Shown here: piece after piece, positions 14,310 through 40,989 of the stretch
Layout of the letters: the number at the start of each line of letters is the position of its first letter
How positions within the stretch are numbered: the first letter of the stretch is position 1
From: Gemmatimonadota bacterium
GTDB taxonomy: Bacteria; Gemmatimonadota; Gemmatimonadetes; Gemmatimonadales; GWC2-71-9
Length of the DNA: 64,000 nucleotides
Assembly: GCA_022710485.1 (NCBI GenBank)
Contig: JAKLGU010000001.1
Span: 468,315-532,314 of the forward strand
Reading direction: 5' to 3'
Translations under genes and position numbers: made by a program
Notes under the pieces: generated by a model
What the model was told of the DNA's origin: nothing
Seen by the model: the letters and a program-made list of their open reading frames with translations, nothing else
Database searches by the model: none

Positions 14310-15775
14310 GCGGAGTGCGCCGCATCCGATTCCGCGATCGCGGGCTTTCGCGCGTGCCGCGCGGCGTCCTCCGCGAGCGCGGCGGCGATCGCGGCGAGCC
14401 TCGTCAACTCCGCCGCGGGCCGGGCCTCCGCCAGGTCGGGGCGGCGGTCGAGGAACTGGATGTCGATCTCCCCGGCCATGAACGCGGGATCGGACACCAG
14501 CCGGCGCTGGAACCCCTGGTTGCTGGCGATGCCGATGATCACGAGCTCGTCGAGGGCGCGCACCATGCGGCGCAGCGCCTCGCGGCGGTCGCGCCCCCAG
14601 ACGATGAGCTTCGCCACCATCGAGTCGTAGTGCAGCGTCACGTCGTTGCCGACCTCGAAGCCGCTGTCCCACCGCACGCCCGGCCCCGCCGGCACGCGCA
14701 GGAACTCGAGCCGCCCCGTGGACGGCATGAAGCCGTTCGCGGGGTCCTCGCTGGTGATCCGGCACTCCACCGCCCAGCCGTTCGGCGCGAGCGGCCCCTC
14801 GGGCACCTGCATCGGGAGGCCGCGCGCGATGCGCAGCTGCTCCCGGACCAGGTCGATGCCGTACACCATTTCGGTGACCGGGTGCTCGACCTGGATCCGC
14901 GTGTTCATCTCGAGGAAGTAGAACGACCCGTCCGCAGCGAGGAGGAACTCGCAGGTGCCGGCGCTCCGGTAACCCACCGCCGCGGCGGCCGCCACCGCCG
15001 CGGCGCCCATCCGCTCTCGCAGCGCGGCGTCCACCGCCACGGACGGAGCCTCCTCGAGGACCTTCTGGTGCCGGCGCTGGACCGAGCATTCCCGCTCGCC
15101 GAGGTGGACGGTGCGCGTCGCATCGGCCAGGACCTGGATCTCCACGTGGCGCGGGCGTTCGATGAACTTTTCGATGTAGACGCCGGCGTCGCCGAAGGCC
15201 TTGAGCGCCTCGGACGCGGCCGTGGCGAGCGCCCCCTCGAGTTCCTCCGCGGCCCGGACCACCCGCATCCCCTTCCCACCACCGCCGGCAGCCGCCTTCA
15301 CCATCACCGGATACCCCATCTCCCCGGCGAGCGCCAGCGCGGCGCCGAGGTCCGTGACCGGCGCATCGGCACCCGGCACCACGGGCACGCCGGCGGCGCG
15401 CATGCGGCGCCTCGCCTCCGTCTTGTCGCCCATGGCACGAATGGCGGTGGAGGGAGGCCCGATGAACACCAGGCCCGCCTGCTCGACCGCCTCGGCGAAC
15501 GCGGCGCGTTCCGCGAGGAAGCCGTAGCCCGGGTGGATGGCCTGCGCGCCCGTTGCGCGGGCAGCCTCGAGCAGCCGGTCGATCCGGAGGTAGCTCTCGG
15601 AGGGCGCCGCCGGCCCGATCTCGACGGCCAGATCCGCCGCGCGGACGTGCGGGCTCAGGCGGTCGGCGGCGGAATAGACGGCCACCGCCTCGAGGCCCTC
15701 CTCGTGGCAGGCGCGGATGATGCGCAGCGCGATTTCGCCGCGGTTCGCGACGAGGACTCTCGTGACTGGTGTCAT
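14273..15775 (-). CDS. biotin carboxylase subunit (acetyl/propionyl-CoA carboxylase alpha, BC part)
   Basis: 500 aa, VLVANRGEIALRIIRACHEEG...YPVMVKAAAGGGGKGMRVV...EMNTRIQVEHPVTE. Confidence 0.9.
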   Translation of the reverse strand: MTPVTRVLVANRGEIALRIIRACHEEGLEAVAVYSAADRLSPHVRAADLAVEIGPAAPSESYLRIDRLLEAARATGAQAIHPGYGFLAERAAFAEAVEQAGLVFIGPPSTAIRAMGDKTEARRRMRAAGVPVVPGADAPVTDLGAALALAGEMGYPVMVKAAAGGGGKGMRVVRAAEELEGALATAASEALKAFGDAGVYIEKFIERPRHVEIQVLADATRTVHLGERECSVQRRHQKVLEEAPSVAVDAALRERMGAAAVAAAAAVGYRSAGTCEFLLAADGSFYFLEMNTRIQVEHPVTEMVYGIDLVREQLRIARGLPMQVPEGPLAPNGWAVECRITSEDPANGFMPSTGRLEFLRVPAGPGVRWDSGFEVGNDVTLHYDSMVAKLIVWGRDRREALRRMVRALDELVIIGIASNQGFQRRLVSDPAFMAGEIDIQFLDRRPDLAEARPAAELTRLAAIAAALAEDAARHARKPAIAESDAAHSAWLATARSEGLR

Positions 15776-15818
15776 GGGCGTGGTGGGATGGCGGACGGCG
15801 GGCCGCTGGGGCGAAAGC

Positions 15819-16826
15819 CTAGCGGCGGCAGGCGGCGATCTGTGTGTCTCCGAGCAGCGCCAGCGGGCCGTCGCAAAGGCGCGGGTTGAACCCGGCGGCG
15901 GCGGTGTAGACGCCGTGCACCTCGCGGAGCCAGGAGGACTTCCCCTGCCGGTCGGCGCGGGCGAGGTCGGTCACCGTCACGACGCGGTCGCTCGAGGTGA
16001 CGCCGGGCCCCGCCACGAGCACGAAGCGCATCGGGCGCAGTTCGGGCAGCGCGAGGAGGGCGCGGTCGGCCATGGGCGTGAGGCACACCGGCCGGTGCTG
16101 GGCCACCGTGGCCAGCGCCTGCTGGACCGACCACGACGAGTCGGTGCCGAGCGCGTTGGCGATTCGGTGGCGGTAGAGGGCGTCGGTGGCGTAGAAGGCG
16201 GGCACCACGATGACGACGCTGCCGGCCGCGCCCGCCGTCGCCACCACCGAGAAGATGGCCACCGTCTCGAGGTCGTTTCCGGTGGCCATGACCCCGGTGG
16301 CGGGGCAGCTGCTCAGCAGGTTGGCGCCGAGCTCCGAGATGTAGTCGGGAAGCGGCGCGACGTCGGTGGGCACCGTCCACCGGGTGAGCGCCTGGTAGCC
16401 CTGCCGCTCCACGGCATCGAGCGCCCGCTCGACTTCGAGCATCTGGCGGAGGATGACGGCCGAGTCGCCGCGGAGGCGCACCGCCTGGTCGAGGGCGGCG
16501 GCGCCGAAATCGATGTAGAGGGTGCCGGGAGAATCGGTGGGGTGCCCGGAGAGGTGCCAGTCGCGGATGTCGAGGAGGTAGAAGCGGCCGAGCTGGATCC
16601 AGGCGGAGCCGTCATCCGGGGAGGTGGCGAGGTAGCGGCTGAGCATTTCGGTGCCGATCCCGCGCTGCCCGTTCCGGGCCAGTTCCGCGGCGCGGGGCGC
16701 CACGGTCGGATTGAGCGAGGCCTGCCCCACCAGCGAGCCCGCCGATCCTGTGCCCATGAGGGCCAGCATCAGGATGCTCCGCAGGTTGGTGTGCGCCGCT
16801 CGTGCCATGCCTGCCGCCAGTCGCAT
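15819..16826 (-). CDS. hypothetical secreted protein (signal peptide, no recognisable domain)
   Basis: 335-aa ORF with an N-terminal hydrophobic signal-like segment (LRSILMLALMGTGSAGSLVGQ). Codon usage matches the surrounding genes. I could not recognise a family. Confidence 0.5.
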   Translation of the reverse strand: MRLAAGMARAAHTNLRSILMLALMGTGSAGSLVGQASLNPTVAPRAAELARNGQRGIGTEMLSRYLATSPDDGSAWIQLGRFYLLDIRDWHLSGHPTDSPGTLYIDFGAAALDQAVRLRGDSAVILRQMLEVERALDAVERQGYQALTRWTVPTDVAPLPDYISELGANLLSSCPATGVMATGNDLETVAIFSVVATAGAAGSVVIVVPAFYATDALYRHRIANALGTDSSWSVQQALATVAQHRPVCLTPMADRALLALPELRPMRFVLVAGPGVTSSDRVVTVTDLARADRQGKSSWLREVHGVYTAAAGFNPRLCDGPLALLGDTQIAACRR

Positions 16827-16908
16827 TCGTGGTTCGGGGGTAAGGTCCTAAGATGGGGCCCCGTACCGAGTTTGGCTAGAGGCAGCGTCTCGGACCCCTC
16901 ACCCCCAC

Positions 16909-16933
16909 CCCCCTCTCCCTCCGGGAGAGGGGG
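16909..16933. repeat. GC-rich REP-like hairpin (CCCCCTCTCCC tcc GGGAGAGGGGG)
   Basis: Perfect 11-bp inverted repeat with a 3-nt loop, just outside the left att-like repeat. Confidence 0.6.
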
Positions 16934-16947
16934 AGTCCGAAATTCTG

Positions 16948-17125
16948 CCACCCCGCCCCGCTGCCCCCCTGCCCCGCCTACAACGGCATGCACCCGTGCT
17001 TCTTCGCCGGGTTCCGGTCCCGCTTGGTCCGGAGGGCCCCACGGGACACACGATCGCGCCGACGCTAACCTACCCGCTGGACGAAGATCCGGGATATCCT
17101 AAATCCGGGAGGACCCGCCGGCTCG
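16948..17125. repeat. att-like repeat copy A: displaced copy of the pccB 3' end (16948-17039) plus shared arm X (17040-~17125)
   Basis: 16948-17039 matches 25947-26038 at 91/92 positions. 16984-17084 matches 25584-25684 with about 5 mismatches. Confidence 0.85.
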
Positions 17126-17207
17126 CCTCCTGGACGCCATGCTCCTCAAACACCAGGCCCGCCGGTGGGCCTCGGCCCTCTGTCCCCAGAAGAACTCAGG
17201 CGCCCCC

Positions 17208-17708
17208 TCAAGGGCGCCCGTTTGGATTCGCTTGTGACCGGCACAAGGAACCAGATTCGCGAGTGACCTGAACCACCAGGTCTTCGAAATTCGGTTGCCC
17301 AGATCCATCGCTGCAGCGCAATAGCATGGCTCCAGCCTCCGAATGAGCGACGTGCATTGCGCTGCTTGTCAGGGCGTACAGCATTGTCTTGTGCTGCCGG
17401 TCCTTCCATACGTTGATGAAGGTCAGAGCCGCGGGACCCTTCGCCTCGATGATGGTCAGGCGAACCTGCTCCGGGGCGGTGTCGGTCCAAAACACCAGTT
17501 CCTTGCCAGTGATGCGTTCCACGGATACCTGGCAATGCTGCGCCGATACTCGGAGGCCCTGGACATACTCCGCCGTGAAGGAGACAAACCGAATGCTGAT
17601 CACATCTCCCTCAGCCACCCCGAGCATGAATCGACGATGCAGTACGAGACCCCGGTGCGTGATTGTGCCGGTAGCACTGCCCTCAAAGAGAGGGGTAAAA
17701 TCCACCAA
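17208..17708 (-). CDS. putative immunity protein for the orphan toxin
   Basis: 166-aa ORF starting 33 nt after the orphan toxin stop, with GGGAGG 6 nt before a TTG/GTG start. GC content is lower than in the core genes. No recognisable family; the call rests on position. Confidence 0.45.
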   Translation of the reverse strand: MVDFTPLFEGSATGTITHRGLVLHRRFMLGVAEGDVISIRFVSFTAEYVQGLRVSAQHCQVSVERITGKELVFWTDTAPEQVRLTIIEAKGPAALTFINVWKDRQHKTMLYALTSSAMHVAHSEAGAMLLRCSDGSGQPNFEDLVVQVTRESGSLCRSQANPNGRP

Positions 17709-17741
17709 TCAGGGCCTCCCTTGGAAGCTACTCCTGGCTAG

Positions 17742-18620
17742 TTAACGATAGGGATCAACAGCTCGGTGCTGATCTGGCGTGACGGCTTCGACCTGAATAC
17801 CCCCGTCCCGACGCGGTAACGGAGTGTGATGCAGCTCGACAGATTCCCCGTCAATCTGAGGTGCATTGCCCCGCTTCATTCGCGATATATTGCCTGCACC
17901 CCAGCGCTCCGCGGCACCTTCAGAAGCTGCCTCGGTCTTCCAAAATCGCCGGCGCTGTGTTGTCCAACTTCTTCCGGCAGTGGCTGCGGTCTCCTGCGCT
18001 GTATGAGCCCCGCTTGAAGTGACGAGCTTGCCTACCCCGGTCGCACCAGCATCTACTCCTTGGCGAGCTGCCCGCCCAGAACCCACGAGGGTGCCAAGCG
18101 CAGTGGCGACTCGTTGAGCACCGCTTAGTGCCTCGCCGGTGATTAGGTCCCGACCAACAACAGCTCCAGCGATGTCGACCGCATCACCGACGCCGGGAAT
18201 CAGCCCCACGGCGAGTGAGACACCCGCGGCCCCCAAGCAACTGCTCGGAGGTATTGGACACAGCCCAAACGGATCGGTGTAGGTCGCCGGGTTGTTCCCA
18301 TTAAACTGGTACAGGTTCAGCCCGCCCGCCACCCCGAGCGGATCCTCCTGCTTCCACCGCCCCGTCCGGCTGTCGTACGCCCGGTTCCGGAAGTAGGAGA
18401 CCCCTCCCGGGGCCCCGCTCCCCTGCCGGTTCACGTCGAAGGTGAAGCCGTTCTGCGTGGCGCCAGCGTACTGCCACGCCCCCCGGTCCGTCGAGACGTC
18501 GGCCTCCACCAGGAAGCCCGAGCTGTCCCCCACCGCCAGCTGCCGGCCCTGGCCGTCCATCACGAAGTAGAGGGTCTGGCGGTAGGCGGCGCTCAGGGCG
18601 AAGCGCCAGCCGGTGATCAT
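17742..18620 (-). CDS. orphan Rhs C-terminal cassette: last Rhs core repeat + DPFGL motif + HNH/EndoVII-like (LHH / GH-E-type) nuclease tip
   Basis: Its first ~125 aa are near-identical to residues ~1270-1410 of the full-length Rhs (…YFRNRAYDSRTGRWKQEDPLGVAGGLNLYQFNGNNPATYTDPFGLCPIPPS). The sequence then diverges and ends ...MKRGNAPQIDGESVELHHTPLPRRDGG...PDQHRAVDPYR. It lacks the Rhs N-terminus, and the M at 18620 is internal to the homology. It ends in a TAA stop. Confidence 0.7.
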   Translation of the reverse strand: MITGWRFALSAAYRQTLYFVMDGQGRQLAVGDSSGFLVEADVSTDRGAWQYAGATQNGFTFDVNRQGSGAPGGVSYFRNRAYDSRTGRWKQEDPLGVAGGLNLYQFNGNNPATYTDPFGLCPIPPSSCLGAAGVSLAVGLIPGVGDAVDIAGAVVGRDLITGEALSGAQRVATALGTLVGSGRAARQGVDAGATGVGKLVTSSGAHTAQETAATAGRSWTTQRRRFWKTEAASEGAAERWGAGNISRMKRGNAPQIDGESVELHHTPLPRRDGGIQVEAVTPDQHRAVDPYR

Positions 18621-18631
18621 GGCCGCGGCGG
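18255..18631. repeat. Rhs core-end homology block (orphan copy)
   Basis: About 98% identical to 19804-20220, apart from a 42-nt in-frame indel flanked by the short repeat AAGCGCC. Confidence 0.9.
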
Positions 18632-18890
18632 CGGCGGCTAGCGCGTGCGTGCGGCAGCCCCTACAACGCCACGAGGCGTGGGCGGTGCCCGCCCCACGGA
18701 AGGAAGGAACTCCATGTTACTCTGCGTTGGCGCGGATCGATAGAAAGTGGGTGCGGCTAGATGGGGACTCCAGCGCGGGAGCAATCCCCTGGTTGGCCCG
18801 GCCTTGGTGCCTAAACGGCTCCATCCGATCGAACACCCATCACACTCGGCTCTCTCGCCATCAAGTGGCTGGGTTCGGGGGGGACGTCGC

Positions 18891-19337
18891 TCAAAGCAAG
18901 TCCCTCACTCGCCGGTCGACGAGCGCCCTGACGAGTGCCCCTGATTGATCAGCCCGGCGGATTCCCTCAATGGAAGTCCAGGAGCGGAGGGTCGGGATCG
19001 CGATATCCCGAACCAATTCCCGGAAGTCAGTACTACCGCCCACAACCGCTGCACGTCCAGGAGTGGATTCGACTTCCACGTCGGAATTTGCCGGAACGAT
19101 AGTCCCCAATCGCAACCGAAGATGCGCGCGATCTCCGCGCGGCCACTCGCAAGGTTCGATCAGTTGGACCCAGGCCGCGAGGTTCAGGTAGACCTCCGGC
19201 CCCCACTGAGACCGCTGGAGTTCTGCGAAAGCTGTCACCTCACGGCCTCTCAGGTACCACGCCTGTTTCTTCCGCACAAAGCCCGCTTCCTCGAGAAGGC
19301 CGTCAAGTTCTGAGGCGATCGGATCACGCTTCCTCAC
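18891..19337 (-). CDS. putative cognate immunity protein of the full-length Rhs toxin (DUF4304-like by recollection)
   Basis: 148-aa ORF. Its GTG start lies 9 nt after the Rhs TAG stop and is preceded by a perfect AGGAGG (TAGGAGGctgagGTG). Confidence 0.5.
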   Translation of the reverse strand: MRKRDPIASELDGLLEEAGFVRKKQAWYLRGREVTAFAELQRSQWGPEVYLNLAAWVQLIEPCEWPRGDRAHLRLRLGTIVPANSDVEVESTPGRAAVVGGSTDFRELVRDIAIPTLRSWTSIEGIRRADQSGALVRALVDRRVRDLL

Positions 19338-19346
19338 CTCAGCCTC

Positions 19347-22300
19347 CTAGCGTGGCGAGTATGTCTCAACAACCCCTGTCCATTTCTCACCGGTAACCTG
19401 TTCAAGCTCCTTGCGATAGCCTTCGACTTGCCGCTCGCCTCTCCGCATTGCCGACGGGTTATTCGGCTTCAATTCCTTCACGACCCGCGTCTGGTAGTTG
19501 ACCGCGTCTGGCCTCTTTCCGCTTGGGAGCCGCTCCTCCTTCACGAACCCTGGGCCTGGGTCCCACGCACGGTGAACCGCCCGACCTTGCGCAGCCTGAA
19601 CGGACTCCCCTCCACGCGCAACCCTTGCTCCGGCATCCGCCGCCCCTATCACCCGCTTGGCGACCCCGAACGATGGCACCCCCGGTACCGCGCCAGCGAC
19701 GTCAAGAGCCGCGTTCACGAACGTGCCGAGCGAGGGTGCAGCGACGAATTCTACGACACTCGCTACCGCAACCGCGATGTCCACGCAATTGGATGGTGGG
19801 ATCGGACACAATCCAAACGGATCGGTGTAGGTCGCCGGGTTGTTCCCATTAAACTGGTACAGGTTCAGCCCGCCCGCCACCCCGAGCGGATCCTCCTGCT
19901 TCCACCGCCCCGTCCGGCTGTCGTACGCCCGGTTCCGGAAGTAGGAGACCCCTCCCGGGGCCCCGCTCCCCTGCCGGTTCACGTCGAAGGTGAAGCCGTT
20001 CTGCGTCGCGCCGGCGTACTGCCACCCGCCCCGGTCCGTCGAGACGTCGGCGTCCACCAGGAAGCCCGAGCTATCGCCTACCGCCAGCTGCCGGCCCTGG
20101 CCGTCCATCACGAAGTAGAGGGTCTGGCGGTAGGCGGCGCTCAGGGCAAAGCGCCCCAGAAGGAGCTCGTCCGCCCCCGGGGCGCTCACGAAGCGCCAGC
20201 CGGTGATCATCGCCGCCGCGTTGGGCCCGTCATGGGTGGTCCAGACCGCGTCGAGCGCGCAGGGCAGGCTCGGCTGCCCCTCGGGGTCGTACTGGCATCG
20301 GGTGGGGTGGAAGTGGTGCGCCAGGTTCCCGTTGGGATCGAAGCCGTCGGCGTAGCGGTACCCCGTGTTGCGGCCCAGCGCGTCGTAATACTCCCACCGC
20401 TGGAGCGGCGCATTCACCGTCGTGACCGGGGCCGAGTCCCGAACCCGGGACCCGTCGGCGTCGTACCGAAAGTCCACCCGGGTGCCGGAGAGGACGTTGC
20501 GGTCGTACTGGACGCGGTTGCTGAGCGCCGCGATGGCCATGGTGTCCCGGCCCGGGTAGCCCCCGCTCGACTGGTAGCGCACGATCAGGTTGCCGGACGC
20601 ATCGTAGCGCAGCGAGTCCACCTTGAGCTCGTCCCGCTGGATGACGAGCTCGCTCCGCCGGTTATAGCGATTGGAGAGATTGCGCTGGCTTCCCGCCGCC
20701 CCGCCCTTCCCGCACGGCAGGAGCAGGCTGTCCTGGCTGTTGAAGGAGGTGCAGCTAGTCCGCTGGTGCAGGATGCGCCCGATCGCATCCACGGAGTCGA
20801 CCAGGAAGGTGAAGTCGAAGCGGTCGGTGCCGCCCGTCGGCGCGGCGGGATTGGCGGACACGACCCGGCGCAGGACCCCGAGCGCGTCGTAGGAATAGGC
20901 GACGGTCATCCCCGGGATGGGGTAGGTGATCTGCCGCCGCCGGCCCAGCGCGTCGTACGTAAAGGTGAAGACGCGCGTGGCCATGGCATTCGCGAAGCCG
21001 CTGCTGTCCATGCGCACCACCATCGAATCCAGGGTGCCCGTGGCCTGTCCATACACGTACCGCACGGAGTCTTGGCCCCCGGCCACGAGCAGGGTGCGCG
21101 CCCCCGTGGCGTCGTAGGTGTAGTCCAGCGAGTCGGTAAAGCCGGTCACCGTGGTCTTGGTGCGGAGCGCGCCGTCCCCCCAGTACGTCCGGCGGATGAC
21201 GTGACCCTGCTGGTTGCGGCTCACCAGCAGGTTCCCGAGCAGGTCGTAGGTGGAGCTGAGGCTGTCGCCGGGGATGAGGGTGCCATCCCCGGGGAAGGTG
21301 CTGGCCCGTTGGGGGAAGATCAGGGCCGTCCGTCGGCCCAGGGAGTCATACCGGTACCGGGTCACGAAGCCGGTCCGGGTGCGGATCGAGTCCAGCAGGC
21401 CGTTCCGGTTGTAATAGAAGAGCTGCTGCGCCCCGGCCTCGTCCTGCTCCCTGGCCACCTGGAGCCGGGCGTCGTGGAGGTACTTGCGCTTGACGTTGCG
21501 CGGATCAAGGATGGAATCCACCGTGCCAGACATCGAGTAGCCGTAGCGCGTGAGCAGCGTGGAGGGCAGCCCGGGCAGGAAGAGTCGGGTGGAATCGACG
21601 CAGACGAACTGATTCGTAAGGCAGCCGCCCAGCGGGCTCGGCACCGTCGGGTGGGTGTGCTTGCTGGTGTAGAAGGTCTGCAGCGTCTCCCGGTTCATCA
21701 CGTCATAGGTGTGCCTGGTCCGGGTCCCGAGGGGGTCGTAGACATCCGTGATCCGCCCGAGGGAATCCACGACGTAGCTCGTGACCACACCCGCCGGGGA
21801 GGTGCCGGTCCGGAGATTCCCGTTGGGGTCGTAGGTGAAGCCCTGCACCTGGTTGCGGACGCTGTCGGTGCCGGCCGACTGGACCCAGGTCTCGACCTGA
21901 TGCTCCGTCACGCTGGTCACGAGCCCCATGAACGCGCCGCTGGCAATGTAGGCAAAAGAGGTGCGGTGACCGCCCGGGTCGATCACGCTATCGGTCAGCC
22001 CCAGGGCGGTGTAGCGATAGTCGGTATGCCGCCCCAGCACGTCCTGCACCCGCGAGGGAGAATCCGGGGCGTTGGCGTTGGCGTAGGAATAGGTGGTCGC
22101 CTTGGTCGGCCGCAGATCCAGGTGCCGCGTGCTGTCGCGTCGCTCCACCAGGTTGCCCCGCGGGTTCCAGCTCATCCGCACGATCCGGCCGCCCGCCCCC
22201 GGCGTCGTGGCGTGCGGATACTGGACGCGCGTCGGCACTGCCGGAAGCGAGGCCGCACTGTCGTAGGCAATGGTCGTGATGGTATTCAGGCCGAGATTGG

Positions 22301-24149
22301 TGATCCTGGTCGGTTGCCCGAAGCGGTTCACGAGGATGTCGCTCGCGTCTCCCGTCCCCGCGATCGGCCCATCGACCCGGCTCGGCAGCCCAGTCGCAGC
22401 GCTCGTGACCCCGGTCGAGGTGTCCGCGTAGGGCAGCGCGAGCCCCTGCTCATCCCACGGCGTGAGCGCCGTCGTCGCAAAGAGCGTCGCCGCGCTGTCG
22501 GTCTGGATATTGACCACGGTGACCCGGGCATTGTTGGCGTATGTGAAACTGGTATACGCGCTGTCGCCCTGCATCCCCTTCCGAGGATAGATCCGTTTGC
22601 TGAGGCGACCGCCCGTATAGGTGAACCGGGTCACCTGGCCGTCCGGATCGGTGAGCGCCCTGAGGGTGTCCAGCGCCATGGTGCTCTTGAGTCGCCGCGC
22701 CCCGGGGTCGCGGATGCTGTCCAAACGGGCCGTCGTCGCGTTCCAGTGGAAGGTGTAGCGCCGCGCCGTGCCAGTGTCCGGCGGCACCGTGATGGTGCTG
22801 AGCCGCGCCTGCCCCGCCACCGTCCCCCATGAGAAGAGGGTGCGCGCGCCGACCCGGTTCCGGGTGAATCGGTGCCGCCCGGTGGCATCGAAGGTCACCG
22901 CCGCGCCGTGCTTGAGGTCTCGGCGGTACCACTGCTGGCATCCCGGCGTGCAGAGAGTGTCGAAGCGGACCAGGCTGTCGGGCGCGTCGCCGACGGCGCC
23001 AAGGAAGGAGTTGCTGCCCGGCGTGGGCTTCGTGTAGAGCCGGATCGAGCCGTCGCCCGCCACCCACACGCGCCGCGTGCTGTCGCTGGGGTCGGTGAAC
23101 ACCTGCTCCAGCCCCAGCAGCGCCCAGCCCTTGCCGAACTCACTGGCGGAGCGGTTGACCACCAGCACGGTGCCGGTCACCGTGGCGTCATAGGTGCTGG
23201 TCGCGTAGACGTTGCGGGCGGTGAGCGTCATCGGGTACGCGCCCGTCGCGAGACCGGTGATCCCGCGGCCGATCACCATCTGTTTCGTCTGGCCCGCGGA
23301 AAAGGAGGCGTACTGGGCGCTGTCCTTCGCCATGCCGGTGGTGGGATTGCCGACGGTGAGGAAGAGCCGGATGCTTTGCGGCGTGTTGGTGCTCGGCGGC
23401 TGCGACACGTTGGCGGCCACCAGGACCAGCCCAGTGGCGGTGGCCGAATTGTAGAGCAGCGCGAGCGAGCGGTCCCGGCCGAGCGTGCGGTACGCCGGCA
23501 GTCCATGCGTCACGAAGAGGTCGCCGCAGGAAATGCCGGCTGCCTCCCCGGCCCCCGTGGTGAGGCAGAGCCCGCGATCGACATTGCTGCCGTTCTGATT
23601 CTGGAGCACGATCGTCGGCGGCCCCACCGCCTCCACCGTGACGGTGTACCAGCCGTAGTCGGTGCCGGAGCTGAGCCCGACCTCCCCGACGCCGCCCGCC
23701 CCGGCCGAGTACGTCACGGTGACCTCCACCTCCTCGTTGGGGTCCAGACTCACCGAGGAGGGGGTGACGGTCCCGCAGGTCAGCGGCCCCGTGGTGCTGC
23801 AGGTGAGGGTCGCCGAGGCGAAGCTGGTGCCGGTATTCCGGACGACGAAGACGGCCGTGTGCCCGGCGGTGTACGCCAGCACGGTGCTGGGCTCGCCATC
23901 GGGCGTCACGACAACGCCGCCGAGACACCCCGAGACGCACATCGGCGTGATGCCGCCGCCGTCCTTTTCCTGTGCGGGGGCGTTGACCGTGATCAGGAAG
24001 AGGAACGACGCAAGACCGAGGAGGAAGCGATGCACGGACCGACTCCGGTGATGAGACGGTCCTCCACTTTGGCAGGCGGCGTGCCGTGCCGCTCCAAACT
24101 CGATGCCCTGACACGTCAACGACTTGCGTGCTCGGGGGAGCCCGGCCAC
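19347..24149 (-). CDS. Rhs/YD-repeat polymorphic toxin with Sec signal peptide and a PD-(D/E)xK (Tox-REase-5-like) C-terminal tip
   Basis: 1600-aa ORF with dozens of YD repeats (YTYDATGARTL, YRYDSLGRRT, FTYDPNGNL, YRYDADGSRV). The core ends in ...NPATYTDPFGL. The tip carries ...LPSGKRPDAVNYQTRVVKELKP...QVEGY. The signal-like segment HRFLLGLASFLFLITVNAPAQE follows an alternative GTG start at 24035, which has GGAG 7 nt upstream. Confidence 0.9.
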   Translation of the reverse strand: MAGLPRARKSLTCQGIEFGAARHAACQSGGPSHHRSRSVHRFLLGLASFLFLITVNAPAQEKDGGGITPMCVSGCLGGVVVTPDGEPSTVLAYTAGHTAVFVVRNTGTSFASATLTCSTTGPLTCGTVTPSSVSLDPNEEVEVTVTYSAGAGGVGEVGLSSGTDYGWYTVTVEAVGPPTIVLQNQNGSNVDRGLCLTTGAGEAAGISCGDLFVTHGLPAYRTLGRDRSLALLYNSATATGLVLVAANVSQPPSTNTPQSIRLFLTVGNPTTGMAKDSAQYASFSAGQTKQMVIGRGITGLATGAYPMTLTARNVYATSTYDATVTGTVLVVNRSASEFGKGWALLGLEQVFTDPSDSTRRVWVAGDGSIRLYTKPTPGSNSFLGAVGDAPDSLVRFDTLCTPGCQQWYRRDLKHGAAVTFDATGRHRFTRNRVGARTLFSWGTVAGQARLSTITVPPDTGTARRYTFHWNATTARLDSIRDPGARRLKSTMALDTLRALTDPDGQVTRFTYTGGRLSKRIYPRKGMQGDSAYTSFTYANNARVTVVNIQTDSAATLFATTALTPWDEQGLALPYADTSTGVTSAATGLPSRVDGPIAGTGDASDILVNRFGQPTRITNLGLNTITTIAYDSAASLPAVPTRVQYPHATTPGAGGRIVRMSWNPRGNLVERRDSTRHLDLRPTKATTYSYANANAPDSPSRVQDVLGRHTDYRYTALGLTDSVIDPGGHRTSFAYIASGAFMGLVTSVTEHQVETWVQSAGTDSVRNQVQGFTYDPNGNLRTGTSPAGVVTSYVVDSLGRITDVYDPLGTRTRHTYDVMNRETLQTFYTSKHTHPTVPSPLGGCLTNQFVCVDSTRLFLPGLPSTLLTRYGYSMSGTVDSILDPRNVKRKYLHDARLQVAREQDEAGAQQLFYYNRNGLLDSIRTRTGFVTRYRYDSLGRRTALIFPQRASTFPGDGTLIPGDSLSSTYDLLGNLLVSRNQQGHVIRRTYWGDGALRTKTTVTGFTDSLDYTYDATGARTLLVAGGQDSVRYVYGQATGTLDSMVVRMDSSGFANAMATRVFTFTYDALGRRRQITYPIPGMTVAYSYDALGVLRRVVSANPAAPTGGTDRFDFTFLVDSVDAIGRILHQRTSCTSFNSQDSLLLPCGKGGAAGSQRNLSNRYNRRSELVIQRDELKVDSLRYDASGNLIVRYQSSGGYPGRDTMAIAALSNRVQYDRNVLSGTRVDFRYDADGSRVRDSAPVTTVNAPLQRWEYYDALGRNTGYRYADGFDPNGNLAHHFHPTRCQYDPEGQPSLPCALDAVWTTHDGPNAAAMITGWRFVSAPGADELLLGRFALSAAYRQTLYFVMDGQGRQLAVGDSSGFLVDADVSTDRGGWQYAGATQNGFTFDVNRQGSGAPGGVSYFRNRAYDSRTGRWKQEDPLGVAGGLNLYQFNGNNPATYTDPFGLCPIPPSNCVDIAVAVASVVEFVAAPSLGTFVNAALDVAGAVPGVPSFGVAKRVIGAADAGARVARGGESVQAAQGRAVHRAWDPGPGFVKEERLPSGKRPDAVNYQTRVVKELKPNNPSAMRRGERQVEGYRKELEQVTGEKWTGVVETYSPR
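19804..20220. repeat. Rhs core-end homology block (full-length gene copy)
   Basis: Partner of 18255-18631. Confidence 0.9.
24071..24086 (-). promoter_or_regulatory. candidate sigma54 (-24/-12) promoter for the Rhs gene
   Basis: The minus strand reads cGGCACGccgcCTGCc, which is GG-N10-GC spacing against the consensus TGGCACG-N4-TTGC. It lies ~36 nt upstream of the alternative GTG start at 24035 and 112 nt downstream of the AAA+ activator stop. Confidence 0.3.
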
Positions 24150-24197
24150 CTGCCCCAGGCGCGCTGGGCGCGCGCGTCCGCGCGCGCCTCCCGCGGA

Positions 24198-25232
24198 TCA
24201 CACCCCGAGGTGCACCGTGAGGCCGAGGGCCTTCATCCGCCGATAGAGCTGATGCACCGAGATCCCCAGGGCCGCAGCCGCCGCGGAGCGGCGATACCCA
24301 GCGTCCACAAGGGCCTGCACAATTGCGGAGCGGGCCGCAGCGTCAACCGCGCGACCCAGCTGTCCGTTCCCATTCAACGGCCGGTGCCCGGGCCACTGCA
24401 CCGCTCCTCGGAGGACAGACGTCGTGAGCGGCCCGTCCCCCGCCTCGAACAGGGCCCGCTCGACCACCCGCAGGAGTTCCCGCACATTCCCTGGCCAGTC
24501 GTGCCCTGACAGCGCCAGTGCGATCTCCTCGCGGGGGAGCTGAGGCCTCCCCATCCGACTGAGCAGGTGGTTGACCAGCAACGGTACATCCTCGAGCCGT
24601 TCACGCAGGGGCGGGAGTTCGATGGTGATTGCCGACACCCGGTGCCAGAAGTCCATGCGCCACCGGCGGTCCCGCACCAGCAGCTCAGCGGGCTGCTGCA
24701 GCGCCAGGAGAAGGCGAAAGCGGGCACTTCGCTCCTCCCTGTCCCCGACGCGGCGCACACGTCGCGTTTCGAGCACGCGGAGCAGCGCACTCTGCACGGC
24801 CGGCGAGAGCTCGCATGCCTCATCCAGAAAGAGTGTCCCGCCCTCAGCCGCCTCGATAAGGCCGGGTCGGTCCGTGGCGTCCGTGAACGCGCCACGCCGG
24901 GTTCCGAAGAGTTCCGACTCAACCAGCTGGGCGCTGAGGGAGGCGACGTTCAGCGCAACCAGAGGGCCGGTTCGCCTCGACAGCCGGTGCAAGGCGGTCG
25001 CCACGAGCTCCTTGCCCGTCCCCGTCTCACCCGTGATCGCGACGGGAACATCAAGGACCGCGGCGCGTCGGACCTGATCGAGGAGCGGCGCCAGCCAGCG
25101 CGCCGCGCCCACCATGCCAAGATCACTGCCTCCCGTAGAGTCCTCGCATGAGTGCACCTGTGGGAACATGGACCACCTCGGCGTCGCGCCGGCGAGAGAG
25201 TGGAGCAGGGTGCTGCGAGCAGGATGGGCCAC
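24198..25232 (-). CDS. sigma54-interaction-domain AAA+ transcriptional activator (bEBP-like) with C-terminal Fis-type HTH and no sensory domain
   Basis: Walker A VAITGETGTGKE, ESELFG, a GAFTGA-loop variant (RRGAFTDA), Walker B GTLFLDEA, and the HTH AAAALGISVHQLYRRMKAL. Only ~40 aa precede the AAA+ core. The start may be the ATG at 25115 (MVGAARWL, with GGGAGG upstream). Confidence 0.8.
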   Translation of the reverse strand: MAHPARSTLLHSLAGATPRWSMFPQVHSCEDSTGGSDLGMVGAARWLAPLLDQVRRAAVLDVPVAITGETGTGKELVATALHRLSRRTGPLVALNVASLSAQLVESELFGTRRGAFTDATDRPGLIEAAEGGTLFLDEACELSPAVQSALLRVLETRRVRRVGDREERSARFRLLLALQQPAELLVRDRRWRMDFWHRVSAITIELPPLRERLEDVPLLVNHLLSRMGRPQLPREEIALALSGHDWPGNVRELLRVVERALFEAGDGPLTTSVLRGAVQWPGHRPLNGNGQLGRAVDAAARSAIVQALVDAGYRRSAAAAALGISVHQLYRRMKALGLTVHLGV

Positions 25233-25583
25233 CTCAGCCAGGAGATCGAGCGGAGACGACCCGGATGGCTTTGATGGGAGATAAGGCAGGAGATGGGCCA
25301 GCGTCGCAACGAGGGGGGGGCAATCCTACAACGTCTTTTCCTGCAAGTCCTTACGGGTATGCGTCTCCCTCGTTAACACCGGGCGCGTGCACACAGACCC
25401 AAATGATATTCTCGCAACCTATTGAAAGACAGCAACTTACGAAAACCACCCGCACAGTCGATATTGTGCACGTAGCTAACGCCATTAACAGCAATGTCTT
25501 ACGGGTCTGGGAGGCGGGAGTCGAGCCTATTCTGGTGAATTCTTGCCCTCTTGATTGTGCACGCGAGTTCTTCGTCGCTAGAG

Positions 25584-25720
25584 CGGCATTCACCCGTGCT
25601 TCTTGGCCGGGTTCCGGTCCCGCTTGGTCCGGAGGGCCCCACGGGACACACGATCGCGCCGACGCTAGCCTACCCGCTCGACGAGAGTACGGGCGCTCCT
25701 GAATCCGGGGACCCGCCGGG
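25584..25720. repeat. att-like repeat copy B: partial pccB 3'-end copy (25584-25639) plus arm X (25640-~25720)
   Basis: Aligns to 16984-17120 at a constant 8,600-bp offset. Identity is high to 25684 and then decays. Confidence 0.8.
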
Positions 25721-25749
25721 CGCTAGCCACTCGCGGTCGGCAACCCAAC

Positions 25750-25923
25750 AAGGGGTGGGCTCACGCCCACCCCTTGCCAAAGGAAACGCAACTTCTTGGC
25801 GGGTGGCATCGCAGCGGTGCGGTTCCAGCGCTTCCAGGTTGCGTCCCCCTCCACGAGGGGTGGCCGTGAGGCCACCCCGTGGCCGAAGCAATCTCGACCC
25901 GAAAGGTGTGGCCATATGGCCAC
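25750..25923. repeat. cluster of three GC-rich perfect hairpins (REP-like)
   Basis: First, aaggggtgggc-tcac-gcccacccctt at 25750-25775. Second, ggggtggcc-gtga-ggccacccc at 25857-25878. Third, the 16-nt palindrome gtggccatatggccac at 25908-25923. A related ggggtgg-agg-ccacccc lies at 29561-29577. Confidence 0.7.
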
Positions 25924-25946
25924 GCCGATTGCGCCCCCCCTTGCGC

Positions 25947-26038
25947 CCACCCCGCCCCGCTGCCCCCCTGCCCCGCCTACAACGGCATGCACCCGTGCTT
26001 CTTCGCCGGATTCCGGTCCCGCTTGGTCCGGAGGGCCC
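25947..26038. repeat. att-like repeat copy C: the functional 3' end of pccB (stop + last 59 nt) plus 30 nt downstream
   Basis: Matches 16948-17039 at 91/92 positions. The only mismatch is 26010 a versus 17011 g. Confidence 0.9.
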
Positions 26039-27530
26039 GGAGCCCGTCAATGAGCCTGGGCCGAGTGTCGCGCGGGTCGATCACGTCGTCCACGTAGCCC
26101 CGGGCCGCGGCGCCCCACGGGTTCGCGAACTTCTCGGTGTACTCCTCGATCCGGCGCGTCGTCTCGGCGGCCGGGTCCGCCGCCTTCGCGATCTGCTCCT
26201 TGAACAGGATCTCGACCGCACCCTTGGGGCCCATGACGGCGATCTCGGCCGTCGGCCAGGCAAGGTTGAGGTCCCCTCGAATGTGCTTGGAACTCATCAC
26301 GTCGTACGCGCCCCCGTAGGCCTTCCGGGTGATGACGGTCAGCTTCGGCACCGTCGCCTCGCAGTAGGCGTAGAGCAGTTTGGCGCCGTGCTTGATGATG
26401 CCGCCGTGCTCCTGGGCCACCCCCGGCAGGAAGCCCGGCACGTCTTCAAAGGTGACGAGCGGGATGTTGAAGGCGTCACAGAACCGGATGAACCGCGCTC
26501 CCTTGACCGAAGCGTTGATGTCGAGCACGCCGGCCAGCACCGCCGGCTGGTTGGCCACGACGCCGACCGACTGCCCCCCGAGCCGCGCGAACCCAACGAG
26601 GATGTTCCCCGCATACTCGCCCTGCACCTCGTGAAAGAGGCCGTCGTCCACCACGCGGCGGATGACGTCGTGCATGTCATACGGCTGGTTGGCGTTGGCG
26701 GGGATGACGTCCAGCAGCGCCTCGTCCCGGCGGTCCTCCGGGTCCGCGGTCGGCAGCACCGGCGCGGGGTCGAGGTTGTTGCTCGGCAGGTAGCCGACCA
26801 ACTCGCGAATGGCGGCAAGGCACTGCGGCTCGGAGTCGTGGACGAAGTGCGCCACGCCCGAGGTGCCGGCGTGGATGTCGGCGCCACCGAGCTGCTCGAA
26901 CGAGACGTCCTCGTGGGTGACCGTCTTCACCACGTTCGGGCCGGTGACGAACATGAAGCTCACGCCGCGCACCATGTGGACGAAGTCGGTGATGGCGGGA
27001 CTGTACACCGCCCCGCCGGCGCAGGGGCCGAGGATGGCGGAGATCTGCGGCACGACGCCGGAGGCGAGGGTGTTGCGGAGGAAGATGTCGGCGTAGCCGC
27101 CGAGCGACACCACGCCCTCCTGGATGCGGGCGCCGCCGGAGTCGTTGAGGCCGATGATCGGCGCCCCGTTCCGCACGGCGAGATCCATCACCTTGCAGAT
27201 CTTGGCCGCGTGGGTCTCCGACAGGGACCCGCCGAAGACGGTGAAATCCTGGCTGAAGACGTACACCAGCCGGCCGTCGATGCGGCCGGAGCCGGTCACC
27301 ACGCCGTCGCCGAGGTACACCTCGTCCGCCAAGCCGAAGTCGGTGGCGCGGTGCGTCACGAAGCGGTCGATCTCGACGAAGCTCCCCTCGTCGAGCAGGA
27401 GGTCGAGCCGCTCACGCGCGGTGAGTTTGCCCTTCTTGTGCTGCTGGGCGATCCGCTTCGCGCCGCCGCCCTGCTCGGCCTCGGCCTGGCGGCGGTGCAA
27501 TTCATCGAGACGCTTCCGTGAATCTGGCAT
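25977..27530 (-). CDS. pccB: propionyl-CoA carboxylase beta chain / methylmalonyl-CoA carboxyltransferase (12S) family
   Basis: [57 protein letters not shown]...[19 protein letters not shown]...[14 protein letters not shown] chose the ATG at 27530; the track ORF starts 36 codons earlier. Confidence 0.9.
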
Positions 27531-27549
27531 AAGGGGGAATGTAGGGTCC

Positions 27550-27657
27550 AGCGGGGAAGCGGGGAAGCGGGGACGAAACTCGACCGAGTCGTGAAATGCG
27601 CAAGGGGCGACCGATGACAGATCGCCCCCTGGGCTCATCCTTCCCCGCTTCCCCGCT
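27550..27657. repeat. composite inverted repeat built from GCGGGGAA octamers enclosing an inner hairpin
   Basis: agcggggaagcggggaag (27550-27567) is the perfect reverse complement of cttccccgcttccccgct (27640-27657), an 18-bp stem. An inner stem ggggcga/tcgcccc lies at 27604-27628. Confidence 0.7.
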
Positions 27658-27672
27658 GACCTGCCGCAGTGG

Positions 27673-29433
27673 CTATTCGTCCGCGGGGGACTCGTCGAAG
27701 TCGGGCTTGACCGGCGGGATGATCGGCTCGTCGGGGTATCCGATGACCGCCACCACGATGCGGTGATGGATCGGGTCCACCTCGATGACCTTCACGTCGA
27801 GGGGCTGGCCTTCCTTCACCGCGTCGCCCGGGTTGTCGATGTTGGCGACGCCGAGCTGCGACATTGGGGCGAACGCCTCGAGGTCGTTGCCGAGGTCGAT
27901 GACGACGCCCTTGTCCATCAGGCGGACGGCGCGGCCGCGGAGCTCATGGCCGACCGGGAGGATCTCGCCGATGCGGAGCCAGGGATCCTCTTCCGCCTGC
28001 TTGAGGCCGAGGGAGATCCGCTTGTTCTCGCCGTCGATGTTGAGGATGACGACGTTGACGGCGTCGCCCTTCTTGACCACCTCGGACGGGTGCTGGACGC
28101 GCTTGGTCCAGGACATGTCGGAGATGTGGATGAGGCCGTCGATGCCGGGCTCGATCTCGACGAAGGCGCCGAAGCTGGTCAGGTTGCGGACCTTGCCCTG
28201 GAGCCGGGTGCCCACCGGGAACTTCTGCGGCAGGATCATCCACGGGTCCTGCTCGGTCTGCTTCATGCCGAGGGAGATCTTCTCCTCCGACTCGTCGACC
28301 TTGAGGACCACCGCCTCGATGGTCTCGCCGATGCTGACGATCTTCGAGGGGTGCCGGACGTTGCGGGTCCAGCTCATCTCGGAGATGTGCACCAGGCCCT
28401 CGATGCCGGGCTCGAGCTCGACGAAGGCGCCGTAGTTGGTGATCGAGACCACCTTGCCCTGGACGCGGGTGCCGACCGGGTACTTGGCGGCCACGTCCTT
28501 CCACGGGTACTCCTGCAGCTGCTTCATGCCGAGGCTGATGCGCTCGCGCTGCCAGTCGATGTCGAGGATCTTGACCTCGACCTCGCGGCCGATGGCGACC
28601 ATCTCGGTCGGGTGCGACACGCGGCCGTAGGACATGTCGGTGATGTGGAGCAGGCCGTCCACGCCGCCGAGGTCGATGAACGCCCCGAAGTCGGTGATGT
28701 TCTTGACGACGCCCTTCCGCACCTGGCCGACAAGGAGCTCCTTCATCAGGTGCTCGCGCTTGTGGGCCCGCTCGTGCTCGAGGATGACGCGGCGGCTGAC
28801 GACGATGTTCCGCCGGCGCTTGTTGAGCTTGATGATCTTGAACTCGTAGGTCTGGCCGAGGAGCTCGTCGATGTTCGGCACCCGGCGGAGCGCGATCTGG
28901 CTGCCGGGGAGGAAGGCGTCCACGCCCATCAGGTTCACGACCACGCCGCCCTTGATCTTCTTGACCAGGGTGCCCTCGACCGGCTCGTCCGCCTCGTGCG
29001 CCACCCGGATCCGTTCCCAGACCCGCATGAAGTCGGCCTTCTTCTTGGACAGGACGACGGCGCCTTCCTGGTCCTCGAGGTGCTCGAGGAAGACCTCGAC
29101 CTCGTCACCGACCGCCGGGGGCTCCTTGAACTCGTCGAGGGCCACCGAGCCCTCGGACTTGAAGCCGACGTCGAGGATGACGGCGTTCTCGGTGATGCGC
29201 AGGACCTTCGACTTGACGATCTCGCCCTCGGCGATCGAGGCCATGGTGCCCTCGTACATCGAGAGCATCTGCTCGTACTCGTCCTCGCTGTACTCCTCGT
29301 CGTAGAGGTCAGCGCGGACCATCAGCCCGGTCGAGGACATCGAGCCCTCGGTGTGGGCGGAGCGGCGGCGGGGGGATTCGTCGGAAGCGGCGGGGGTGTC
29401 CAGGTCGGACGGGGCAGCGGACAGCTCGGACAT
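27673..29433 (-). CDS. rpsA: 30S ribosomal protein S1 (six S1 domains)
   Basis: 586 aa with repeated S1 motifs (GxVxxxxxFGAFVxLxxGxxGLxHISE). The start could be a downstream ATG. Confidence 0.95.
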
Positions 29434-34318: not shown

Positions 34319-34364
34319 CGCGGACTGGGAAGGGATCCAGGCGAGTGAACAGGGGGCCCATCGT

Positions 34365-34769
34365 CTACGCGGTGGGCCCTCGTGTTTTCTGGCCGGACTC
34401 GTGCAGCATGGCGGTCACGATGAGCGCGACGATCAGCAACACCGAGTACTCCATGCCGTTCCTGCCCCCACCGACCACGAACCAGCCGTCGGACGCGTGA
34501 ACCAGCAGGATCCCCATGATGAGTTCCGCCGCGAACCAGCCGCACAGCGGGCGCACCAGGAAGCCGAGGATGAGCGCGGGGCCACCGACAATCTCCACGA
34601 TCGTGACAAGCCAGGCCACGGCCGGACCGAGCGGAACGTGCTGCGCGTCGAGGAAGCCCCCGAATCCGGTCACGCCCCCGTCGTAGACTCGGTAGACGCC
34701 GTGAATGGTAAGGAGCAGGCCGAGGGTGGCGCGGAGGATGACGCTCGCGCGGAGGGCAGTAGGCGACAT
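34365..34769 (-). CDS. DoxX-family membrane protein
   Basis: 134 aa with 4 hydrophobic helices, ...LLLTIHGVYRV...VEIVGGPALILGF.... Confidence 0.6.
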   Translation of the reverse strand: MSPTALRASVILRATLGLLLTIHGVYRVYDGGVTGFGGFLDAQHVPLGPAVAWLVTIVEIVGGPALILGFLVRPLCGWFAAELIMGILLVHASDGWFVVGGGRNGMEYSVLLIVALIVTAMLHESGQKTRGPTA

Positions 34770-34850
34770 GGCGGGCCGGTCCTGGTCGAGGGGAGACAGC
34801 GGGCGATGTCTTCCCTACGCGGGACGAGTGGGGCGGGTGTCAGTAAGGGG

Positions 34851-35234
34851 TCACGCGCTGGTTGCCGTCCCTCGCGCCCTCCCCGCCGCGACGAGCAGAA
34901 CCGCCACGATTGCGTGCACCACGACCGCCGGCCACAGCAGCGGTCCGCCCAGATGGAGGGCCGCCCCCGCATACCCGAGGAGCCCCGCGATCATCGCGTT
35001 GTAGAGCACCAGGGCGCGGACGCCCTGCATCGACGGCTCGCCACGCGTGTCGCTCGGCCAGCACGCGATGGCCATCGCCACGAGCGCGACGCCGAAACAC
35101 CGAACGACGAGCGGACCCGCTCCGGACAGGTCCGTGCCGAGCAGCAGTTGCGTGACCACCGATGGGGCGAGCAGCGATGCCAGCCCTGTCACCCCCTCGG
35201 TGGCGGACGAGAATGCGACGACCTTCGCTGTCAC
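34851..35234 (-). CDS. hypothetical 4-TM membrane protein, translationally coupled to the upstream sulfatase
   Basis: 127-aa hydrophobic ORF. Its GTG start overlaps the sulfatase stop (GTGA). Confidence 0.5.
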   Translation of the reverse strand: MTAKVVAFSSATEGVTGLASLLAPSVVTQLLLGTDLSGAGPLVVRCFGVALVAMAIACWPSDTRGEPSMQGVRALVLYNAMIAGLLGYAGAALHLGGPLLWPAVVVHAIVAVLLVAAGRARGTATSA

Positions 35235-37846: not shown

Positions 37847-38090
37847 GGCAACTCCGGAGCCCAGGGGGAGACGGGTCGAATTCGACCGCGGACGATGTCC
37901 GGAAGCACCGGACTCAACGATGAGAGTATCACAGGGCGAGGCGATCCGCCAATGTCGGGCGAACGACGGTCATGGGCCGCCCTACCCAACCCTTCAAGCC
38001 GCCTTCATCGTATCTTCAAGACGTTGGCGATTATTGGATGAAGCCGGGCAAACGCCTCGCCTGACAGCGACCACCGGAACGGAGAACGTG

Positions 38091-40912: not shown

Positions 40913-40989
40913 CGTCGAGCAGGCCGGGGGCGTGAGGATGCGGGGGCAAGGCAGCGCCGCAGCAGAGCCAGGTGTCGCAGGGAACGTGG

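Follow-up and report, generated by a model that had tools for sequence, protein, structure and literature searches.

How did a block of Rhs toxin genes come to stand in a housekeeping neighbourhood of a Gemmatimonadota chromosome, between copies of the 3′ end of a metabolic gene and with no recombinase gene among them? The question is raised by a stretch of 64,000 nucleotides (nt) from a Gemmatimonadota bacterium (assembly GCA_022710485.1, contig JAKLGU010000001.1, positions 468,315 to 532,314), called the window below, in which the end of pccB, the gene for the beta subunit of acyl-/propionyl-CoA carboxylase, occurs three times around and within an Rhs island. Coordinates are those of this 64-kb window, the repeat search covered 15000-28000, the island genes all lie on the minus strand, and "position n" is counted in gene orientation. 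Comparison with relatives identifies the Rhs island as a true insertion of roughly 9.0 kb at the pccB 3′ end. The target site and its surroundings are made up as follows:

25977..27530, minus strand: pccB (acyl-/propionyl-CoA carboxylase beta subunit), the target gene; Pfam Carboxyl_trans, E = 1.8e-200
15819..16826, minus strand: TPR-like gene, the native downstream neighbour, directly after pccB in L001, L002, L004, L010, L084-L087, L091 and L100-L103
16885..16947, minus strand: 63-nt hairpin (CCCCCTCTCCC..GGGAGAGGGGG) between the distal repeat copy (copy C, below) and the conserved flank, delimited by alignment of empty sites

The pccB start is the ATG at 27530, giving a product of 517 amino acids (aa) that is on record in three public contigs, and not the 553-aa open reading frame (ORF); the protein assigns the window to Gemmatimonadales, its closest species representatives being 78-84% identical in aa. 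Nine nearer loci (L084-L087, L091, L100-L103) were gathered by a metagenome scan with the fast-evolving TPR protein and by look-ups of close PccB homologs. Their PccB proteins share 93-98% aa identity with that of the window, at 82-90% nt identity, and the order rpsA-pccB-TPR-accC is kept in all nine as well as in five distant loci (L001, L002, L004, L010, L011). Across these relatives the gap between pccB and the TPR gene measures 87-331 nt, with roughly 100-240 nt in the distant ones.

The island is present in none of the nine nearer loci. L091 aligns with the window up to 25952 and again from 16884, with one unaligned L091 base between, and for L100 these limits are 25952 and 16882; relative to an empty site of this type, the window holds 9,067 extra nt. 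The native site runs from the pccB end and its stop codon through a G-rich spacer of ~25 nt into a conserved 64-nt flank. An initial annotation, made from the letters of the window, had proposed a search for such empty sites, and relatives do have pccB directly followed by the conserved flank, with the junctions falling at the repeat. It had also held the three copies of the gene end to belong to the insertion: relatives without the Rhs locus carry one copy rather than three, the sole exception being an extra 23-nt copy in L084, and in a survey of 87 pccB loci, a further copy of the locus's own pccB end within the fetched flanks was seen in this species only.

The spacer between pccB and the TPR gene varies among the relatives in other ways as well. 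The 63-nt hairpin is missing in L091 and L100, and similar hairpins are found in L084 and L085; the form CCCCCTCTCC-loop-GGAGAGGGGG occurs between pccB and the TPR gene in some relatives only (window 16885-16947; L084:1702-1730 and 1804-1830; L085 ~5615-5680). Such a hairpin may be a terminator that comes and goes, or else a mobile palindromic unit of small size. In L084, the same spacer contains a 100-nt tandem duplication (1704-1803, 1804-1903) whose first unit ends in the 23-nt pccB end (AGCACGGGGGCATGCCGTTGTAG), and this copy is closer to the window allele than to L084's own pccB end. The L084 duplication indicates that the pccB-TPR spacer is rearrangement-prone in its own right.

Inside the window, the insertion is organised by copies of the gene end, here called the core, and by non-coding arms attached to them:

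25947..26038, minus strand: attL-like repeat copy A; the 62 nt that end pccB, stop codon included, plus a 30-nt G-rich spacer, continuous with pccB
25721..25946, minus strand: hairpin-rich remnant of 226 nt, with an imperfect 134-nt self-complementary stretch at 25749-25881
25640..25720, minus strand: arm X', the element-side arm directly upstream of copy B
25578..25639, minus strand: repeat copy B, a diverged pccB end with 4 changes against copy C
25233..25577, minus strand: AT-rich arm (GC about 56%) that separates copy B from the activator gene, with repeated GTGCACAAT and CCCGTAAG motifs
17040..17125, minus strand: arm X, the non-coding element-side arm directly upstream of copy C
16948..17039, minus strand: repeat copy C, attR-like; the displaced pccB end plus G-rich spacer, joined to the native flank

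Copies A and C agree at 91 of 92 nt (99%), the sole mismatch (17011 g versus 26010 a) falling at position 29. There the pccB-linked copy A has T and both X-linked copies, B and C, have C; T is also the allele of four of five relatives (L100, L084, L085, L087). Copy B differs from copy C at two of the 56 nt over 25584-25639 (positions 35 and 50) and by two further changes, at positions 57 and 59, ahead of the stop codon; one of the four changes turns TGC into TGA, and past the stop copy B has no similarity to copies A or C. Arms X and X' align over 82 nt (17040-17121 versus 25640-25719) at 85% identity by blastn, and X and core taken as one repeat (16978-17109 versus 25578-25709) reach 89% in the repeat search. 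X is present upstream of the displaced copies B and C only, never upstream of the pccB-linked copy A. Both the 92-bp repeat with its single mismatch and the partial third copy with two mismatches, followed by arm X, had been picked out in the initial annotation; the repeat search recovers the former within a three-member family whose partial copy ends at 25639, and alignment finds both parts of the latter.

The window holds exactly two instances of a 39-mer of X (0 expected by chance), and the direct repeats of at least 40 nt in the whole window are limited to the pccB-end/X family, the S1-domain repeats within rpsA and the Rhs core-end repeat; the dispersal of X plus core was checked within the 64 kb only. 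Nothing corresponding to X, the 226-nt remnant or the AT-rich arm is found at any empty site of the relatives. The possibility that X is diverged pccB coding sequence was considered and rejected: X has stops in all frames, including every frame that continues into the core, and no similarity to the PccB C-terminus. On the coding strand, the G-rich run directly after the pccB stop (25947-25976 and 16948-16977) reads GGGG CA GGGGGG CAGC GGGG C GGGG and is quadruplex-like; a comparable, rapidly diverging G-rich run follows the pccB stop in L091, L100, L084 and L087.

Read in gene orientation, the layout is pccB-core, remnant, X'-core, cargo, X-core, flank. The cargo consists, on the minus strand, of a sigma-54 activator gene, an Rhs gene with a Tox-REase-9 tip, a DUF4304 gene, an orphan tip with PT-TG and LHH domains and a small ORF; Pfam annotation here agrees with the previously given order of pccB, activator, Rhs, immunity and orphan genes. 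This cargo is compositionally foreign, as seen in its 56% GC arm and in the GC content at third codon positions (GC3), which is 0.64-0.89 for island genes versus 0.93-0.97 for neighbouring genes.

To follow the island within the species, exact look-ups of PccB and the TPR protein were used, which gave twelve same-species contigs from several samples; the species occurs in samples JGI 3300010429, 3300025715 and 3300025706, ENA ERZ795054, ERZ761563, ERZ27257456 and ERZ27257480, and SRR4244739 and SRR5007146. The look-up with the TPR protein gave four contigs that span the distal junction (L108, which is NCBI contig L081 again; L109; L110; L112), and 4/4 carry the island, which may be fixed in the species. 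L081/L108 (NCBI) and L082 (JGI, found through PccB) cover the island from end to end, at 99.3-99.9% identity and with each of the three copies, and L109 and L112 (ENA) and L110 (JGI) show the X-copy C-flank junction with the same sequence. Six contigs from different assemblies break inside the 92-nt repeat (the end of L083 and the starts of L111 and L113-L116; window 25948 and 16959-17010), so this repeat confuses short-read assemblers and the link between pccB and the island tends to be lost.

One of these contigs records recombination within the cargo. In the window, the first 375 nt of the orphan tip (18233-18607) repeat 19781-20155 at 95% identity, and the shared repeat ends at the ..DPFGLCP core motif. 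L081 (GCA_035913895.1) is 99.9% identical to the window minus 1,548 nt, which hold the REase-9 tip and the DUF4304 gene, and its Rhs gene ends directly in the PT-TG/LHH tip, i.e., the tip is expressed from the main gene. Among the 19 distinguishing sites of its hybrid repeat (L081:17376-17750), nine of upstream type are followed by ten of orphan type, which corresponds to a single crossover between positions 148 and 343 of the 375-nt core-end repeat. The toxin tip was thus exchanged by homologous recombination, as in other Rhs loci, and the Rhs tip is polymorphic within the species by this route.

Concerning the origin of this horizontally acquired insertion, we propose a decayed scar of tandem integration, similar to a cis-mobilizable element (CIME) and left by elements whose attachment (att) site carried the pccB end; we give this proposal about an even chance of being right. 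In this scheme, an incoming element would leave pccB intact and move a second gene end to the distal border, so that copy A would act as attL and copy C, preceded by X, as attR. X' and copy B would form an internal junction produced by tandem accretion with an older element, of which ~300 nt would survive: one element would integrate and decay, and a related element would then integrate into one of its att sites. Alternatively, an already composite element may have integrated once. The recombinase would have been lost or never carried, which would make the islet a CIME-like fossil, unable to move unless a recombinase acted in trans or RecA recombined the 92-nt repeats. We assume that copies A and C are functional att sites, and it is from the layout alone that we infer site-specific recombination. 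The initial annotation had spoken of two successive site-specific integrations; the insertion and the att-like layout hold, the site-specificity is a deduction from that layout, and a single composite integration may also account for the arrangement.

Several traits of the sequence would fit tandem integration. Direct repeats of the gene end stand at both borders, with one internal copy; X lies only on the element side of the displaced copies; and the X-linked copies share C at position 29, with T in the pccB-linked copy. Copy B resembles a replacement for the gene end that an element brought with it, being similar to the others up to the stop codon and unrelated after it.

Other observations weigh against this proposal. 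Copies A and C do not differ anywhere in the 30-nt G-rich spacer, which varies among L091, L100 and L084; a foreign attP is not expected to match such a fast-evolving spacer, so the last event, or a later gene conversion, was probably between conspecific sequences. No recombinase, excisionase or transposase was found among the island ORFs with Pfam and NCBIfam, no transfer genes were found in the island, and the searches yielded no intact relative of the element. An exact 23-mer of X had no match in metagenome and viral contigs, a weak result given that the metagenome set also lacked the known contig L082, and the AT-rich arm, X' and the remnant had no match in plasmids and phages in distant mode. 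Neither an empty site nor a circular junction was seen among the same-species contigs. As only this species among the 87 pccB loci duplicates its own gene end, there is no independent sign of a family of elements that targets pccB. It seems unlikely that Gemmatimonadales harbour an undescribed family of integrative elements specific for the pccB 3′ end, with X as their signature and a recombinase in trans, that move Rhs modules. If they did, these elements would carry sigma-54-controlled Rhs modules away from the type II secretion-like cluster in which such modules normally reside, and toxin/immunity sets would be strain-exchangeable cassettes, like the auxiliary effector islands of type VI secretion systems.

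The same borders could also have arisen without a site-specific recombinase. In a Campbell-type homologous insertion, an island circle from the same species, formed by recombination of the flanking repeats, would have re-entered a naive chromosome by a single RecA crossover in the 92 nt. This would account for outer repeats that are nearly identical even through the fast-evolving spacer and that end exactly where the homology of the two contexts ends; it would also suit an island that holds no recombinase and demonstrably recombines homologously over its other repeat, of 375 nt. However, it leaves the first X-core junction and the older, diverged X'-copy B junction unexplained and requires an undocumented circle and transfer route, and 92 nt is a short substrate for efficient RecA recombination. 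Its product would have the same layout as that of a site-specific event, so the layout cannot separate the two. We consider a Campbell-type origin doubtful.

Even less probable, in our view, is a local rearrangement, in which slippage or unequal exchange produced further copies of the gene end in situ and illegitimate recombination later trapped the Rhs module between them. The tandem duplication in the L084 spacer, with its 23-nt pccB end, shows that such events do touch this spacer, the length of which varies from 87 to 331 nt among relatives as hairpins come and go, and the quadruplex-like run after the stop codon is a further point in its favour. Yet no native spacer has anything corresponding to X, the remnant or the AT-rich arm, the X-linked copies agree with each other but not with the pccB-linked copy at position 29, and the cargo is compositionally foreign; moreover, the identity of the X-core pair (85-92%) against that of copies A and C (99%) is a misfit with one local duplication. 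An assembly artefact, i.e., a misjoin of contigs from different strains in a metagenome-assembled genome, could be invoked on the grounds that the 92-nt repeat does break short-read assemblies, as in the six contigs above. Nevertheless, NCBI, JGI and ENA assemblies give the same three copies or junctions, and two assemblies differ in toxin content and so are independent, which leaves an artefact with almost no probability and effectively refutes it.

Three further kinds of mobile DNA were considered and rejected. Integration linked to a tRNA gene was set aside, the only tRNA gene (Leu, 40991-41076) being 15 kb away with a galactokinase gene, not an integrase gene, as its neighbour. A transposon or insertion sequence does not agree with the lack of a transposase, the lack of terminal inverted repeats among 18 inverted pairs and a duplication of 92 nt. 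A prophage was dismissed since no phage structural or replication genes were found in the island and no match was found in phage records. The initial annotation had remarked on the absence of integrase, excisionase and transposase genes between the repeats, and family scans of ORFs and six-frame pieces concur: ten six-frame pieces of the island's non-coding stretches gave only noise against Pfam at E <= 1. No recombinase was found among the other window ORFs that were scanned (not every ORF of the window), all of which had housekeeping or no family matches. Two degenerate pccB-end patterns had no match in viral contigs.

The proposed tandem integration has documented parallels. That elements can lose their integrase while retaining attL and attR, as CIMEs have, and can accrete in tandem at 3′ ends of protein-coding genes is documented (PMC5704250); in Streptococcus thermophilus, CIMEs belonging to the ICESt1/ICESt3 family do so at the fda 3′ end (Pavlovic et al. 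2004, reviewed in PMC5704250). Like these, the islet is bounded by attL/attR-type repeats of the 3′ end of a housekeeping protein gene, is devoid of integration and transfer genes, and forms a tandem with an internal att copy, as when a new element enters the att site of a decayed resident. It differs in lying in Gemmatimonadota, in its target, pccB, and in its cargo, an Rhs module; in addition, no related integrative and conjugative or integrative and mobilizable element with an integrase was found for it, so that descent and cis-mobilisation are hypothetical here. The fda repeat is 27 bp long, and the outer repeat of the islet, at 92 nt, is much longer.

At ssrA of Dehalococcoides, the islands that lie in tandem have a conserved motif upstream of each repeat and include integrase-less members; sixteen of them carry a conserved serine-recombinase module, which identifies the mechanism, and their repeat is 20 bp (PMC3146451). 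As in the islet, a single-copy gene is followed by several direct repeats of its own 3′ end that delimit successive islands, an element-borne motif upstream of the repeat does not align with the gene, comparable to arm X, and some islands have no integration module and were proposed to be cis-mobilizable (PMC3146451). In contrast to pccB, their target is an RNA gene, and for the pccB islet no recombinase was found. Prophage e14 of Escherichia coli sits in icd, with a displaced icdC fragment at its far border (PMC13626634). e14 (and phage 21) resemble the islet in integrating within the 3′ end of a metabolic protein gene, where the element supplies a gene end and the original end becomes a pseudogene fragment, and the gene-end copies of e14/icd differ by few, mostly silent changes; unlike the islet, e14 keeps its integrase, excises on SOS induction, and is a single element with phage-derived cargo. 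Set beside these systems, the att-like scar is a new phylum and a new target gene for a known phenomenon, and no new mechanism. It offers a cleanly delimited example of a polymorphic-toxin module entering a core housekeeping region in a poorly studied phylum, with the empty site known to the base and strain-level variation of the toxin tip already visible.

Island genes were annotated by Pfam and NCBIfam profile matches. The cargo and its signals are:

24198..25169, minus strand: sigma-54 enhancer-binding protein; Pfam Sigma54_activat 2.7e-48, AAA_lid_14, HTH_8
24072..24085, minus strand: putative sigma-54-type (-24/-12) promoter, GGCAC-N6-TGC with GG-N10-GC spacing; GGCACGCCGCCTGC at 24085-24072, upstream of the Rhs gene
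19347..24035, minus strand: Rhs toxin of 1562 aa; Pfam RHS_repeat, Tox-REase-9 5.7e-26; NCBIfam YD_repeat_2x, Rhs_assc_core
18891..19337, minus strand: putative immunity gene for the REase-9 tip (DUF4304), directly after the toxin; Pfam DUF4304 8.6e-07
17742..18620, minus strand: orphan Rhs tip, in which PT-TG and LHH (HNH/EndoVII) nuclease domains follow ~120 aa from the end of the Rhs core; Pfam, NCBIfam Rhs_assc_core
17208..17627, minus strand: 139-aa putative immunity gene for the LHH tip, with a gene call in L081, L082 and L109; no Pfam or NCBIfam match
17197..17220, minus strand: terminator-like hairpin closing the toxin cassette, with a 10-pair stem, 8 G-C pairs and a T-rich tail

Judged by its predicted domains, the locus is an Rhs polymorphic-toxin locus with an orphan module that shares the end of the core. 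The Rhs protein begins with a signal-peptide-like N-terminus (VHRFLLGLASFLFLITVNA), followed by YD repeats, the Rhs core and a C-terminal Tox-REase-9 nuclease domain. The activator consists of an AAA+ domain and a Fis-type helix-turn-helix only, with no sensor domain, and has GAFTDA in place of the usual GAFTGA loop motif. The GGCACGCCGCCTGC promoter is conserved as GGCAY-N6-CTGCC, at the same place, in the modules of L092, L095 and L096, and by sequence the predicted sigma-54 unit is complete, comprising an AAA+ activator and a GG-N10-GC promoter ahead of the Rhs gene. The sensor-less activator would drive this -24/-12 promoter and hence the signal-peptide Rhs. Position suggests that the DUF4304 gene, of low GC3 (0.64), and the 139-aa gene are putative immunity genes; the REase-9 tip would be neutralised by the product of the DUF4304 gene that follows it, and an older PT-TG/LHH tip with its immunity gene would have been displaced downstream as the orphan.

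Rhs C-terminal displacement and orphan toxin-immunity arrays have reportedly been described in Enterobacteria (Jackson et al. 2009; Koskiniemi et al. 2014). The islet is like such arrays in having a main Rhs gene followed by an orphan tip that retains the core end, in the GC content of the orphan, which is below that of the core, and in the swapping of the expressed tip by recombination over the shared core end. It is distinguished by its signal peptide, its dedicated sigma-54 activator, its relatives in type II secretion-like clusters and its place inside att-like repeats. Enterobacterial Rhs loci are usually linked to type VI secretion (PAAR/VgrG).

The activator is a member of a small clade of ~320-aa proteins with 51-62% identity, and in viral contigs only an irrelevant relative of 36% was found. 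Five Gemmatimonadales lineages have an activator-Rhs pair (L092-L095, L096-L099, L104-L106, L107 and L117), L117 having been reached independently, through the secretin. There, a type II secretion-like cluster runs in the order activator, GspE, GspG, GspF, pseudopilins, GspM-like protein and secretin (e.g., L096:49-16401). In every lineage examined, a second sigma-54 activator overlaps the end of the secretin gene and closes the cluster, and the Rhs gene and a small gene sit 160-175 nt after this cluster-closing activator. The Rhs proteins of the window and of L096 align from residue 1 and along the full length of the former, with 35% identity over 1,476 aa. As the pair closes secretion clusters elsewhere and no type II secretion genes were found in the window, the islet appears to be a detached copy of the effector module. 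Because the activator-Rhs pair ends a type II secretion-like cluster in the five other lineages, the Rhs protein may be exported by such a machine encoded elsewhere in the genome. The arrangement suggests a dedicated, sigma-54-gated export route for Rhs toxins in Gemmatimonadales. In the literature consulted, we found no description of a link between type II secretion-like clusters and activator-Rhs pairs, and this link may be a more interesting lead than the integration scar. The secretin family itself has hundreds of Gemmatimonadales homologs.

The non-coding parts of the island show few affinities. The 226-nt remnant, presumed to be all that survives of a first element, has a fold z-score of -2.5; it had no match elsewhere in the window (except itself inverted) or in any relative locus, no Rfam match and no Pfam match in any frame. 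The AT-rich arm is likely the promoter or regulatory region of the activator and had no protein-family match in any frame. Paired motifs lie ~100-150 nt apart in this arm (25233-25577): GTGCACAAT occurs twice, with GTGCAC once more, and ACCCGTAAG twice. These motifs may serve as operators or as arm sites of a recombinase. The GC count of 29/60 at 25381-25440 and the TAA stop codon of the orphan tip, both given in the initial annotation, are correct. Rfam at E <= 1 gave no match over 15500-27800, so none of X, the core and the remnant is a known RNA. When the junction regions were folded, several strong hairpins appeared, none of them diagnostic, and a sigma-70 promoter scan returned none in the island.

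The rest of the window is a housekeeping neighbourhood, with rpsA, accC, ribosomal protein genes, pheST, infC, dxs and the genes for RNase Y and galK. It includes a second synteny break at 34323-40990, in which neither a repeat of the tRNA-Leu end nor an integrase was found. This region of ~6.7 kb lies beside the tRNA-Leu gene and holds two sulfatase genes, a DoxX gene and small ORFs, where the relative L102 has ~0.8 kb.

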